DNA of 64,000 bases from GCF_055900595.2 NZ_CM148325.1, one strand, 5' to 3'; shown: positions 46,063 through 52,549, counted from the first letter of the stretch. Translations and numbers: made by a program. Notes: a model not told the origin generated them from the sequence alone.

Positions 46063-46839
46063 ATGGCAAGAAGTGGATTTGAAGTCCAGAAAGTCACCGT
46101 AGAGGCATTATTTCTACGAGAAATACGAACACGCTTTGGTAAGTTCCGTCTGGGATATTTGTGGGCGATTCTCGAACCCTCTGCGCATTTGCTGATACTG
46201 TTGGGCATTTTTGGTTACATTATGCACCGCACGATGCCAGACATCTCATTCCCGGTGTTTTTACTTAATGGCCTGATTCCCTTTTTTATCTTTAGCAGTA
46301 TCAGCAATCGTTCTGTAGGTGCTATTGAAGCGAATCAGGGGCTGTTTAATTATCGACCAGTAAAACCCATCGATACGATCATTGCGCGTGCATTGCTTGA
46401 GACACTGATTTACGTTACTGTTTATATATTGCTTATGCTTATCGTCTGGATGGCAGGCGAATATTTCGAAATAACAAACTTTTTACAACTTGTGCTTACC
46501 TGGAGTTTGTTAATCATTCTTTCATGTGGCGTTGGCTTAATATTCATGGTCGTTGGTAAAACCTTCCCTGAAATGCAAAAGGTCCTGCCGATACTGCTTA
46601 AGCCGCTGTATTTCATCTCCTGCATCATGTTCCCTCTACACTCGATTCCGAAGCAATACTGGTCATATCTACTCTGGAATCCATTAGTGCATGTCGTAGA
46701 GTTAAGCCGCGAGGCAGTTATGCCTGGCTATATCAGCGAAGGCGTGAGTCTGAACTACCTGGCAATGTTTACATTGATAACTCTGTTCATTGGTCTGGCG
46801 TTATACCGAACTCGTGAGGAGGCAATGCTGACATCATGA
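46063..46839 (+). CDS. kpsM: Capsule polysaccharide ABC exporter permease (ABC-2 type)
   Basis: Start at ATG 46063 (MARSGFEVQKVTVEALFLREIRTRFGKFRLGYLWAILEP...), 258 aa, six TM segments; closely resembles remembered KpsM N-terminus; the track's upstream extension would include the ops element. Confidence 0.9.
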   Translation: MARSGFEVQKVTVEALFLREIRTRFGKFRLGYLWAILEPSAHLLILLGIFGYIMHRTMPDISFPVFLLNGLIPFFIFSSISNRSVGAIEANQGLFNYRPVKPIDTIIARALLETLIYVTVYILLMLIVWMAGEYFEITNFLQLVLTWSLLIILSCGVGLIFMVVGKTFPEMQKVLPILLKPLYFISCIMFPLHSIPKQYWSYLLWNPLVHVVELSREAVMPGYISEGVSLNYLAMFTLITLFIGLALYRTREEAMLTS

Positions 46840-46938
46840 TTACTTATCACTAGTATAAAACAGGAACAATATCATAGAAACATCAAAAAAACAAAAGTAT
46901 ATATCTATTGTATTAAAACTTTAAAATCAGGCTGAATA

Positions 46939-47931
46939 ATGTTAACAGCTATAATTCCGATAGATCTGAAGCGTAGACCTAAAGATATAATTAGAAAAGC
47001 AATAAATATTGCTGAGGCAACAAAAAATAATAATATAAAAGTTATATTTGGTCATGGGAATCGTTTCACTACATATGATCGCACCTTTACAAGATTGTTA
47101 AATGGGTATGAGAATGTCCATGTAAAATCATGCGATAATTTTTCTAAGGCCATAAATGCATCTCTATTAAGAAATCAGGCGTTTAAATCAGTTGAAAGTG
47201 AATATGTTATATTACTGGATGTGGATATATACCCTGATTTTAATTTATTTGAGAAGTATAAAGAGAAAATAAAATCTGGCATAAAGCCGTTTTATATTTT
47301 GCCATGCCTATATTTAACAAAATACGGGACAAGTATATTAAATGATAGAAAGGCTTCAATTGAATCATTAAAAAAAAAGTACTTTGCGTTTTCTAGGAAA
47401 GAGTTTTTGCATTTAGCCAGTCCTTCTTCTATTACAATATTAAAATCAGCTGATTATGAAACACTTCATGGTTTTGATGAGAGTTTTCGAGGTCATGGCT
47501 ATGAAGATTTTGATTTCTTGGTGCGCTTGTATAACCATTATTTTATACCTAAAGTAAAGGCTGATTTTTTGGCCGATAGGCCATGTCATTCTCCATTGTT
47601 TGTCACAGGGTTTAGACGATACTTAGGCGAATACTGTTTAGATATTTTATTGCATAAAGACTTTGCGTTTCATTTATACCATAATAAAAACAGGAATGAA
47701 GATTATTATATAGCTAGAACTGAAAATTATCATATATTCAAACAGAAGCACAAAAAAAATATAAGCAATGAACGATATTACGATTCAACGTTGCTTATGT
47801 TATTTATTAAACACTGCATTGATAAGGGGGAGGACATTCGAAATTATAGCATATATTTCGATAATAAACCTGGACATATAGACCGTTACGATACGTTACG
47901 ACGAAGAATTAAATTTTTGCTAAATCAATAA
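46939..47931 (+). CDS. Putative GT-A-fold (family 2-like) glycosyltransferase
   Basis: 330 aa, AT-rich; motif VILLDVDIYPD (DxD-like) and GFDESFRGHGYEDFDF, resembling the GT-A GGFDE.F.G.G.ED.D segment; located between kpsM and the large polymerase gene. Confidence 0.55.
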   Translation: MLTAIIPIDLKRRPKDIIRKAINIAEATKNNNIKVIFGHGNRFTTYDRTFTRLLNGYENVHVKSCDNFSKAINASLLRNQAFKSVESEYVILLDVDIYPDFNLFEKYKEKIKSGIKPFYILPCLYLTKYGTSILNDRKASIESLKKKYFAFSRKEFLHLASPSSITILKSADYETLHGFDESFRGHGYEDFDFLVRLYNHYFIPKVKADFLADRPCHSPLFVTGFRRYLGEYCLDILLHKDFAFHLYHNKNRNEDYYIARTENYHIFKQKHKKNISNERYYDSTLLMLFIKHCIDKGEDIRNYSIYFDNKPGHIDRYDTLRRRIKFLLNQ

Positions 47932-47950
47932 ATTTTAGTGAAGGTGTGTT

Positions 47951-50900: not shown

Positions 50901-51697
50901 ATGGGCGTATCGTTTATATATATGTTCTCTCGTTACTGAGAGATAGGCAAATCAAGGAGGCAATGGATATAGCAAAGAAACTATCACTAAGTGATGAAAA
51001 TAAAGAAGAACTATTAATTGAATTAGTAAGATTTGATAATGTAAAGAACATAAAATCGATTGATATTGATTTTCTTTTGCCTTCAAAGAATGATGAGACG
51101 CTATTAAAATTATATTATAATGTAAAGCAAAGCATCCCGGAAAACATCGTAAAGAGATATTCTCATATTGATGATATGCCCTATTTTGTTTTTGAGTTTT
51201 ATTTAGATGAGTTATTGTCAAAAAAAGAATTTGAAGGCTATTACGAGTACTTAAACAATTCAAAAAACAAAGTGCAATATCTTGACAATAACATTAATAA
51301 ATATAAATACATCAAGTGTATCTTTAATATACTCGGCCCTAATGCTTTTTATGAGGAATTATGTGAAGTATCTAAAGAGGATTGTCTACATAAATCCTTT
51401 AATTATTTGTTTTTAAATAATATAACTTCTGATGCGGGGCTTTTTCATAAAATAATAAAGACTTTAATAACTTTGGGGTTACATAATTTTTCTTGTTTGG
51501 AAGTTTACAATTACATACTGTACTTTTATAAGCAAGAGCGGCCTGATCTGGCTAAAGATGTCATGTATATCTTTTCTATTAAACAAAATGTTAAACAAAA
51601 TGAGCGATTTTATAATGATTCCAAAAACTGGAAAAGTCATGATGACTATGACACATTAGTTAAAGCGGTATCTGAGCTTGAAAATTCGATGAAATAA
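47951..51697 (+). CDS. Large multidomain capsule polymerase candidate with TagF-like (CDP-glycerol glycerophosphotransferase-family) core
   Basis: 1248 aa from GTG 47951. Central region carries TagF-family hallmarks FLQHGITKDD, ILIMPTWRKE (PTWR motif) and ITDYSSVAFDIAYMKTPVIYFQFD; C-terminal ~400 aa is helical/TPR-like, N-terminal ~450 aa unassigned. Confidence 0.75.
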   Translation: MKIKKIKKLFKNPKSFIADSRYFNFINSKKKVDNKLEIGFIVISQNHDLSRYSIDSIIQANNAASKSFPYIVIHDYDEKCGTETIHTIVKKLDTPYIKILFDGEKIHRDFIIKFLNHNIDPNNNDIILHAFSTNSNVKQVDGLLSSSKDISFNNQLWKEHAVLLFSTLIIKSDLILNTSKILHHGGRIIDSLNVLRIFRECEEMDYVLYLNDMYSFNSASLKLEEKIKVLMEDELLLKITFAEIFEHVSLGGRNVFYRKTLFYFIHNIVLFLLKNKKTDERLHEETKTLIKNQLTDIIRILGVDILKGFSAKNYNHVHKIGYLKLIGVKADKDLCYIEDINSENKVVKVKIASQTDAYPQILLNKEYLIPFTAKVKDLTIFDVNFSHEIYFWFSYDAISQELVIKKENNTEILSGGKHYKKIKIENIIKNFERRDLINSSLPLMSKILRYLHTVSFFQKKFLNAWVFIDNEIRADDNAEHFYRYISQKHPDINIYFLLSKKSVDWERLKKAGFKLVKFGGFYHRLLLLNARYLLSSHANPAIVNYLPKKYYADLMKYKFVFLQHGITKDDQSEWLNSRKIDYLVTASKFEHDDISRRGRYRYTTKEVVLTGFPRFDNLSNVDTRNNQILIMPTWRKELAGELMKKSSKRIKNKDFANSLFCKMWGGVLRSESLYNAYKKKGYTIIFYPHPNLADYISDLNIPDYVKIGSLENESIQSIFKKTNLLITDYSSVAFDIAYMKTPVIYFQFDSDTFFSNHSYSKGYFDYNDFGFGPVVKNINDLSEQLNLIVDNNCNLTDFYMSRIKSFFPFSDNNNSSRLYKVLSVGVNKKHDLETLYNYLLMFTSIIDIEGIALMLNNYKQQLQKILYKEGCDICVVINCLYLIANVIDEPKLNLAIRNLLDGVELTNGALKKNHSFGMNNGVDSRISYIEDQIETLSTIIDTNSKLLRHLIDLHAFLTFFKNEEYVQAVFSFKHLQNNLKLRIDGRIVYIYVLSLLRDRQIKEAMDIAKKLSLSDENKEELLIELVRFDNVKNIKSIDIDFLLPSKNDETLLKLYYNVKQSIPENIVKRYSHIDDMPYFVFEFYLDELLSKKEFEGYYEYLNNSKNKVQYLDNNINKYKYIKCIFNILGPNAFYEELCEVSKEDCLHKSFNYLFLNNITSDAGLFHKIIKTLITLGLHNFSCLEVYNYILYFYKQERPDLAKDVMYIFSIKQNVKQNERFYNDSKNWKSHDDYDTLVKAVSELENSMK

Positions 51698-51862
51698 TTA
51701 TTAACACTAAAGGTAAAAATATAAAACGCTTTATCTCCCGCAGCCCAGTCTCATCAAAATCAAGCATTTGGATAAATAAAAAGACTGGGTTATTTATCAA
51801 TAAATTTCTATAATAGCGTAAAATATTAATTAAATTTTTTCCTGATCTGTAAAAATGAAATA

Positions 51863-52549
51863 ATGTTTATGATTACAATTGAAAATCTAACAAAGTCATA
51901 CAGAACGCCACTCGGACGACACTATATATTTAAAGATTTAAATATTGCATTTCCATCAGATAAAAGCATAGCTCTCTTAGGGCGAAATGGAGCAGGTAAG
52001 TCAACTCTTTTAAGAGTTATTGGAGGCATTGATAGACCAGATAAAGGTACTGTAATTACGGATAAAACAATTTCTTGGCCTGTTGGATTGTCTGGAGGTT
52101 TTCAGGGGAGTTTAACTGGGCGAGAAAATGTCAAGTTTGTTGCTCGATTATACTCAAAAGCAAATGAATTAAAAAATAAAATTGAGTTTGTAGAAGAGTT
52201 TTCTGAATTAGGGAAATATTTTGATATGCCAATCAAAACCTACTCATCAGGGATGAGATCACGGCTTGGTTTTGGTCTAAGCATGGCATTTAATTTTGAT
52301 TATTATCTTGTTGATGAAATTACTGCAGTTGGTGATGCTAGATTTAAAGAAAAATGTGCTAAACTTTTTAAAGCAAAGCATTCTGAATTTAATTTCATTA
52401 TGGTTTCACATAGCTTGCATTCCTTAAAAGAGTTTTGTGATGTTGCTATATATTTAGGTAGAAACAACATGGTTTACTATTTTGATGATGTTGATTATGC
52501 GATTAAACAATATTTGATTGATGAAAAAATAAATCCACGGTCAAATTAA
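51863..52549 (+). CDS. kpsT: Capsule polysaccharide ABC exporter ATP-binding protein
   Basis: 228 aa; Walker A GRNGAGKSTLL, ABC signature YSSGMRSRLGF, Walker B YYLVDE; near-identical in pattern to remembered KpsT (IENLTKSYRTP.GRHY.FK.LNI.FP). Confidence 0.9.
   Translation: MFMITIENLTKSYRTPLGRHYIFKDLNIAFPSDKSIALLGRNGAGKSTLLRVIGGIDRPDKGTVITDKTISWPVGLSGGFQGSLTGRENVKFVARLYSKANELKNKIEFVEEFSELGKYFDMPIKTYSSGMRSRLGFGLSMAFNFDYYLVDEITAVGDARFKEKCAKLFKAKHSEFNFIMVSHSLHSLKEFCDVAIYLGRNNMVYYFDDVDYAIKQYLIDEKINPRSN

Follow-up and report, generated by a model that had tools for sequence, protein, structure and literature searches.

The stretch of DNA analyzed here (the window; 64,000 nucleotides of GCF_055900595.2 NZ_CM148325.1, one strand) carries an Escherichia coli group 2 capsule locus in which two biosynthetic genes stand between kpsM, for the permease of the capsule exporter, and kpsT, for its ATPase. 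Comparison with published capsule catalogues identified it as the K52 locus. It is very likely the standard K52 group 2 locus, in which kpsT has been displaced from its usual overlap with kpsM by a derived, historical rearrangement and not as a functional innovation.

Identity with the K52 capsule locus

Two 2026 papers in Nat Microbiol catalogue the transporter-dependent capsule loci of E. coli, one presenting kTYPr (Miravet-Verde et al., PMC13171606) and the other the Kaptive G2/G3 database (Gladstone et al., PMC13171598). For K52, the kTYPr InterProScan supplement lists a nucleotidyltransferase and kinase-like protein of 525 amino acids (K52_7), a HAD capsule phosphatase of 123 (K52_8), a BcbE protein of 248 (K52_9), a hexapeptide acyltransferase of 829 (K52_10), a TagF-like protein of 1248 (K52_12), and a GT-A protein of 330 (K52_13). 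The window holds the same set of open reading frames (ORFs) in the same order, 525, 123, 248, 829, kpsT, 1248, and 330 amino acids. MD5 checksums computed on the translated ORFs of the window and compared with the values in the supplement matched exactly for four of the six type-specific proteins, namely the glycosyltransferase (K52_13), the polymerase (K52_12), the BcbE-like protein (K52_9), and the HAD phosphatase (K52_8). The kTYPr text counts K52, whose serological reference strain is SSI 81998 with the assembly GCA_977947195, among the rearranged loci (PMC13171606). Of 5426 complete E. coli genomes, 39 carried the full 13.6-kb stretch from 45000 to 58600 at ~100% identity, among them an O15:H18 sequence type (ST) 69 isolate from cerebrospinal fluid. 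K52 is the dominant K type of clonal complex 69 and among the top bloodstream types.

The surroundings are those of an E. coli group 2 (2A) locus. The left flank, sslE and a complete gsp type II secretion operon, is the usual one for group 2 kps loci, and region 1 (kpsFEDUCS) lies antiparallel on the opposite strand, with kpsE and kpsF visible in an identical locus (L001). The GC content of 27–34% across 47–58 kb, against ~55% in gsp, is that of an AT-rich region 2. The region 3 leader is 95–100% identical to that of canonical group 2 loci and carries the ops/JUMPStart element GGCGGTAGCGTA at 46024–46035, 27 nt 5′ of the kpsM start codon, in agreement with the published position ~28 bp upstream of kpsM (PMC8960920). 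Only the textbook form of region 3, in which kpsT overlaps kpsM, is absent, as kpsT starts 5,029 nt past the kpsM stop codon; since kTYPr shows several rearranged 2A types, this overlap is not a defining property of 2A loci.

The first-pass annotation of this DNA, made from the sequence alone, had described kpsM and kpsT as parted by a 330-amino-acid GT-A-like gene and a 1248-amino-acid polymerase-like gene, all on one strand 3′ of ops, and the ORFs, the RefSeq annotation, and homology agree on this arrangement. It had placed kpsM and the inserted genes correctly, but for kpsT it gave a start (51863) that lies two codons upstream of the supported one: homology to other kpsT genes runs from the 51869 ATG (MITIENL...), the start annotated by RefSeq too, to ~20 nt before the stop codon. 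Its suggestion of a recombinant, possibly undescribed architecture holds insofar as the locus is rearranged relative to K1 and K5. The four MD5 matches, however, make this the catalogued K52 locus, so that the split order is already known and is the standard arrangement of a characterized K serotype.

Table 1 Features of the window and gene orders of related loci (aa, amino acids; GT, glycosyltransferase; Pol, polymerase; Acyl, acyltransferase; positions in related loci are those of each locus)
Feature	Position	Strand	Basis or description
sslE and gsp type II secretion operon	28509–45006		Upstream flank; sslE a 1525-aa ORF, gsp complete
gspM/yghD	44470–45006		ORF calls
Region 3 leader, between gspM/yghD and kpsM	45007–46062	+	Sequence read; ~1 kb, AT-rich
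kpsM	46063–46839	+	ORF calls and RefSeq annotation of identical locus
GT-A glycosyltransferase (GT330)	46939–47931	+	330 aa; K52_13
TagF-like putative capsule polymerase	47951–51697	+	1248 aa; K52_12
Polymerase–kpsT spacer	51698–51868	+	171 nt, AT-rich
kpsT	51869–52549	+	ABC ATPase, 226 aa
Acyltransferase-domain protein	52769–55258	+	829 aa; corresponds to K52_10
BcbE-like nucleotidyltransferase-fold protein	55296–56042	+	248 aa; K52_9, MD5 match
HAD capsule biosynthesis phosphatase	56023–56394	+	123 aa; K52_8, MD5 match; TIGR01689, 2.8e-60
Nucleotidyltransferase and kinase-like protein	56391–57968	+	525 aa; corresponds to K52_7 in length and domains
IS3-family transposase pseudogene, frameshifted	58186–59295	-	RefSeq, identical locus L001 (22187–23296), coordinates converted
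kpsS	59541–60773	-	ORF calls and L001 annotation
kpsC	60808–62835	-	ORF calls and L001 annotation
kpsU/kdsB	62832–63572	-	ORF calls and L001 annotation
kpsD start, cut by window end	63582–64000	-	ORF calls and L001 annotation
K116-type E. coli GN02461 (L006)			kpsM-kpsT(overlapping)-GT328-Pol1249-Acyl262, then kpsS; homologues 63, 47, and 71% aa identity
K7-type E. coli (L002, L005, L007)			kpsM-GT330 (71%)-CgeB-like-wecB-wecC-920-aa GT-DUF6270-kpsT, then kpsS
Aeromonas (L009; Logan SRR11478880 contig 61, 10001–20993)	GT330 homologue 10001–10993		kpsD-kpsM-kpsT-kpsE-GT330-Pol1259-827 aa-HAD-537 aa-BcbE
Atlantibacter hermannii (L011)	GT330 homologue 10001–11023		kpsM-kpsT-GT330 homologue, directly followed by Stealth polymerase
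L013	GT330 homologue 9001–10029		
Yersinia intermedia (L014)	GT330 homologue 9001–9993		kpsM-kpsT-GT330 homologue-556-aa gene-TagF-like polymerase
Rahnella (L015)	GT330 homologue 9001–9993		kpsM-kpsT-GT330 homologue, directly followed by TagF-like polymerase

The kpsM junction and the displaced kpsT

The kpsM allele is a canonical one, its product (258 amino acids; ABC-2 permease of the capsule exporter) being 99% identical to canonical KpsM, with a KpsM match in NCBIfam and the RefSeq label 'ABC transporter permease'. Canonical loci align with 45000–46842 at 95–98% identity and stop exactly there (megablast query position 1843), 3 bases beyond the kpsM stop codon, where the local sequence is TCATGATTAC; among genomes covering ≥80% of the query, the match ended at this base in at least 1,262. 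In a canonical locus (L004), kpsM ends at 13840 and kpsT starts at 13837, giving the 4-nt ATGA overlap that bears out the contrast drawn in the first-pass annotation with the adjacent kpsMT of such loci. The sequence ATGATTAC at 46837–46844 (+), which overlaps the kpsM stop codon, reads as a relic of the first 7–8 nt of the kpsT that normally starts there, ATGATTA(C), and because ATGATTA opens kpsT in canonical loci, the homology breakpoint coincides with the opening codons of a normal kpsT. Beyond these 7–8 nt, no KpsM or KpsT remnants were detectable in the flanking spacers, so a second or degraded kpsT beside kpsM, or a kpsM relic 5′ of the displaced kpsT, was rejected. Nor did K52 and K7 recently exchange DNA across the kpsM–glycosyltransferase junction, as the 92% megablast identity between them is that of the conserved kpsM region; past the kpsM stop codon, identity is 58–82%. 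The junction broken in K52 is also interrupted in the K5 locus of E. coli JJ2434 (NZ_CP013835.1), where an ISEcp1-blaCTX-M-15 unit with a WbuC fragment (15842–18822) directly follows the kpsM stop codon and parts kpsM and kpsT by ~3 kb.

The displaced kpsT is the only one in the window, as canonical KpsT gave a single significant tblastn match. Its product is 77% identical over 223 amino acids to a kpsM-adjacent KpsT, 79% identical to K7 KpsT, and 73–79% identical to the five other KpsT alleles compared, and the Walker A, signature, and Walker B motifs are intact (GRNGAGKST, YSSGMRSRL, DYYLVDE, and VSHS are all kept). Across six loci, KpsM proteins are 97.7–99.6% identical while KpsT proteins are 70–91% identical, the detached alleles of K52 and K7 being the most divergent (73–79% to all others) and the lowest in GC (32 and 36%, respectively, against 37–41% for kpsM-adjacent alleles). 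Independently, in a preprint on ST131, kpsT alleles track K type, the adjusted Rand index being 0.906, and transcription persists in another kpsMT rearrangement (KL112). Judged by these comparisons, kpsT behaves like a type-specific cassette gene and appears to evolve as a region 2 gene. KpsM and KpsT should still form the usual ABC exporter from genes ~5 kb apart, and from the published encapsulated phenotype of K52 lineages we infer a functional KpsMT transporter.

The spacer in front of kpsT contains the second copy of a 10-nt direct repeat, ATGAAATAAT, which occurs at 51689–51698, on the polymerase stop codon, and at 51855–51864, just before kpsT. In the second copy, ATG AAA TAA makes a mini-ORF whose stop codon overlaps the in-frame ATG at 51863; it may be a relic of an earlier stop/start overlap of the polymerase gene with kpsT, or it may be chance, which alone would be expected to yield 10-base repeats in 6 kb of DNA at 28% GC. 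The spacer was also considered as a miniature inverted-repeat transposable element, and rejected since K52 loci (39 genomes) are the only ones to have it, once per genome, and as a structured RNA or terminator, for which the fold was not significant (z-score -1.0) and no terminator-like site was found. In the K52 locus of E. coli Survcare321 (L016, NZ_CP076301.1; catheter urine), an IS1A element (6969–7666) sits in this spacer at the equivalent of ~51704 and could be polar on kpsT or a source of an outward promoter. A further genome, Ecol_316 (H28), has a K52 locus ~775 bp larger.

Group 2 loci have a promoter, PR3, ~741 bp 5′ of kpsM, and their region 2 is expressed by RfaH/ops-dependent read-through from it (PMC8960920). 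From kpsM to where region 2 ends, a scan of the window found no terminator-like site on the + strand, and promoter-like sites numbered 72 with 78 ± 9 expected, a background count that makes the promoter scan uninformative. The genes from kpsM to that for the 525-amino-acid protein are laid out as what is probably a single transcript, in which kpsM, GT330, polymerase, kpsT, acyltransferase, BcbE, HAD, and kinase genes would be read in one long, RfaH/ops-dependent message from the region 3 promoter. The ATGA coupling of kpsT translation to that of kpsM has likely been lost, leaving a distal and more RfaH-dependent kpsT. The gene has no obvious Shine–Dalgarno sequence, and because it lies ~5.8 kb from ops, it is predicted to need RfaH for its expression more than in K1 or K5.

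Biosynthetic genes around kpsT

The GT330 product belongs to the GT-A family (PF10111 Glyco_tranf_2_2, E = 2.8e-23; also PF02709) and has a DVD motif; a sequence search of PDB returned LARGE1 matches only, none of them significant. It is 71% identical to its K7-type homologue and 63% identical to its K116-type homologue. The gene occurs in 107 of the 5426 complete genomes, 42 of them at ≥99% identity (K52) and 64 at 60–80%, with ~54 K7-like and ~11 K116-like carriers as estimated from evenly spaced rows of the ranking. Elsewhere the family is found in Aeromonas, Yersinia, Rahnella, Pantoea, Enterobacter, Atlantibacter, and Pseudomonas, at a nearly constant length of ~330–342 amino acids and with 45–60% identity among the homologues from outside E. 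coli. It is the first gene past the transporter genes in E. coli K116, Aeromonas (after kpsE), Atlantibacter, Yersinia, and Rahnella; in K7 and K52, two types of unrelated chemistry, it adjoins kpsM; and in seven of the eight contexts compared it lies at most one gene from a phosphodiester-forming polymerase (TagF-like or Stealth). From these positions, GT330 could be what joins the type-specific polymer to its poly-Kdo anchor. The proposals that GT330 is a conserved priming or 'transition' glycosyltransferase, and that detachment of kpsT may make export itself strongly RfaH-dependent and so alter capsule dosage in the highly invasive K52 lineage, are tentative ones that we regard as doubtful; if the first is true, GT330 would add a third kind to the transition transferases known so far, the TagB-like and the LicD-like, and the conserved family is the one lead here worth keeping.

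The 1248-amino-acid protein is a putative capsule polymerase of the multidomain TagF-like kind described by Litschko et al. (2018, 2024), with the characteristic PF04464 Glyphos_transf domain at residues 464–821 (E = 1.4e-40), a weak PDB match to TarL, and no Pfam match in residues 1–460 and 822–1248. Polymerases of this kind form phosphodiester bonds and also have a further GT domain and a C-terminal TPR domain required in elongation. Over its full length, it is 47% identical to the K116 homologue and 43% identical to the Aeromonas homologue. Both GT330 and this protein recur in K116 and Aeromonas; they probably make the polymer backbone.

The 829-amino-acid protein combines an N-terminal hexapeptide-repeat O-acyltransferase domain of ~260 residues (NCBIfam acetyltransferase matches at residues ~143–236 of the 833-amino-acid ORF) with a ~570-residue extension that matches no family. 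Its N-terminal part is 71% identical to the 262-amino-acid acyltransferase of K116, which has no counterpart of the extension, and the whole is 47% identical to the 827-amino-acid Aeromonas protein, itself a weak DUF7796 match. The extension co-occurs with the trio of BcbE, HAD, and nucleotidyltransferase-kinase genes, and this trio recurs beside kpsS in another K type (L008, 11761–14422) with 54, 72, and 57% amino acid identity, the last of these values being that of the 525-amino-acid protein. In the K52 repeat unit, a galactose-phosphate backbone bears a fructofuranose branch and O-acetyl/O-propionyl groups. The title of a structural study by Hofmann et al. (1985) describes the K52 polysaccharide as fructose-containing. 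Homologues of the BcbE-like protein and the HAD phosphatase, K4_9 and K4_11, are tabulated by kTYPr for K4 (PMC13171606), a fructosylated chondroitin. Because K4 is fructosylated and K52 is described as fructose-containing, the trio is a candidate module for the fructose branch. On these assignments, kpsT would stand between putative backbone genes and putative modification genes, the latter being the acyltransferase and the trio. At the far end of region 2, in the interval before kpsS, the IS3-family pseudogene is possibly the scar of a cassette exchange.

Related loci and the origin of the split

In the related loci of Table 1, GT330 homologues follow an adjacent kpsM–kpsT pair in K116 and, with kpsE between in Aeromonas, in the four other genera whose gene order is given, and parsimony gives kpsM-kpsT-GT330-polymerase as the common order, from which those of K52 and K7 would derive. 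On this view, kpsT lost its overlapping place next to kpsM in the K52 lineage, where it entered the type-specific block, and did so in a different form in K7. Of ~1,700 complete E. coli genomes with kps, an estimated 95 or so have the split pair, K52 and K7-like together. In Aeromonas, all six K52 type-specific genes stand in one block at 38–58% amino acid identity, the two large proteins aligning over their full length, which suggests that a K52-like polysaccharide may exist outside E. coli.

A quite different account would have the order selected, with the glycosyltransferase and polymerase genes set between kpsM and kpsT for a fixed proportion or joint assembly that aids the invasiveness of K52. 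The stability of the arrangement across the 39 complete genomes fits this account, as do the estimated invasive potential of K52, the highest in one study, and the view that group 2 biosynthetic and export proteins form a complex. The first-pass annotation had offered this idea as one possibility, with polymerase genes recruited for polymerase–exporter stoichiometry, which adds nothing new because region 2 is already read through from the kpsM promoter. Every group 2 locus in any case transcribes region 2 together with kpsMT, and therefore the K52 order creates no new coupling of polymerase and exporter. The same glycosyltransferase–polymerase pair works where kpsM and kpsT adjoin, in K116 and four other genera, and the variable position of kpsT among relatives that share the pair (M-T-GT-Pol in K116, M-T-E-GT-Pol in Aeromonas) argues against selected coupling. 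In K7, kpsT stands at the far end after five different genes, so that it has no constant partner, and the 100-nt and 171-nt spacers of K52 show no translational coupling of the inserted genes to kpsM or kpsT. We therefore consider a selected order highly improbable. Error in the data has a still smaller, all but negligible chance. Either the contig would be misassembled, a refutation that the first-pass annotation had itself allowed for, or the ATPase would be a TagH- or Wzt-like protein and the true kpsT lost; indeed, the best NCBIfam models for the ATPase are TagH and Wzt, with no KpsT-specific model among the best 25 of 161 matching families. Misassembly is excluded because the 13.6-kb locus is the same in 39 independently finished genomes, while a TagH or Wzt identity is contradicted by the 77% and 79% identities to KpsT alleles given above, by the absence of any other kpsT-like sequence in the window, and by the fact that K52 strains are encapsulated clinical lineages.

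It is also conceivable, though rather unlikely, that the locus was assembled in two steps, in which a K7-like frame, kpsM-GT330-X-kpsT followed by kpsS, took up the polymerase gene as X. Later, perhaps aided by IS3, it would have acquired between kpsT and kpsS both the acyltransferase gene and the module of three genes, with kpsT as the seam. K52 and K7 share the position of the kpsM/GT330 junction and its ~100-nt spacer, their KpsT proteins are mutually closest among the alleles compared (78–79%), and the kTYPr KpsT tree puts K52 beside K106, a K7-like type. The IS3 pseudogene lies at the kpsS-proximal end, and the trio is mobile between K types, always beside kpsS. Against this history, the adjacency of polymerase and acyltransferase genes is kept in K116 and in Aeromonas, where all six genes form one block, and since the set would have to split and rejoin around kpsT, two-step assembly is less parsimonious than the movement of one gene. 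There is also no K52–K7 sequence homology flanking kpsT.

Several observations weigh against the reading of the window as the standard K52 locus with a displaced kpsT. The 829- and 525-amino-acid proteins have the lengths and domains of K52_10 and K52_7 but different MD5 checksums, and the allele in the window is therefore not byte-identical to that of the reference strain. The place of kpsT in the catalogued locus is read indirectly: the numbering 7–10, 12, and 13 (kpsF to kpsS being 1–6) leaves slot 11 between acyltransferase and polymerase, and the missing K52_11 row among the supplement rows listed is indirect evidence that this slot is kpsT. The direction of the rearrangement is inferred by parsimony over a handful of loci and not from a rooted phylogeny, and the K52 kpsT is equidistant, at 74–75% nucleotide identity, from the K7, K116, and canonical alleles, so that its source cannot be named. 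Lastly, a perfect TATAAT at 51809–51814 in the polymerase–kpsT spacer, lacking a convincing -35 element, makes an internal promoter of kpsT's own possible.

The split has practical consequences. Adjacency of kpsM and kpsT is a property of the textbook K1 and K5 loci and not of group 2 in general, and schemes for PCR or annotation built on a contiguous kpsMT will mis-handle K52, among the commonest and most invasive bloodstream K types. For such purposes, kpsT is best treated as partly type-specific. The series of K116, K52, K7, and Aeromonas loci is in addition a compact natural experiment on whether gene order, or translational coupling of kpsM and kpsT, matters for export.

Set against known systems, the window does not differ in structure from the catalogued K52 locus of kTYPr and Kaptive, having the same gene set, lengths, and order with two allelic variants. 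With the canonical group 2 loci of K1 and K5, it shares the chromosomal site, leader, ops element, region 1, and kpsM (99%), whereas their kpsT overlaps kpsM at ATGA and that of K52 is removed by ~5 kb and two genes. K116 has a homologous glycosyltransferase, a 1249-amino-acid TagF-like polymerase, and an acyltransferase domain in the same order as K52, but its kpsT is canonical in overlapping kpsM, its acyltransferase is of 262 amino acids, and it lacks the BcbE/HAD/kinase trio. The K7/K106-type loci (for example, IMT16316, AF23, and MS6198) resemble K52 in the split of kpsM and kpsT, in the same kpsM/GT330 junction, and in a divergent, low-GC kpsT; in these loci, however, kpsT comes last, after five other biosynthetic genes, and neither a TagF-like polymerase nor a fructose-type module is present. 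The Aeromonas locus differs from K52 in carrying its block unbroken after kpsD-kpsM-kpsT-kpsE, in the order HAD-kinase-BcbE of its last three genes, and in a KpsM that is only 39% identical.

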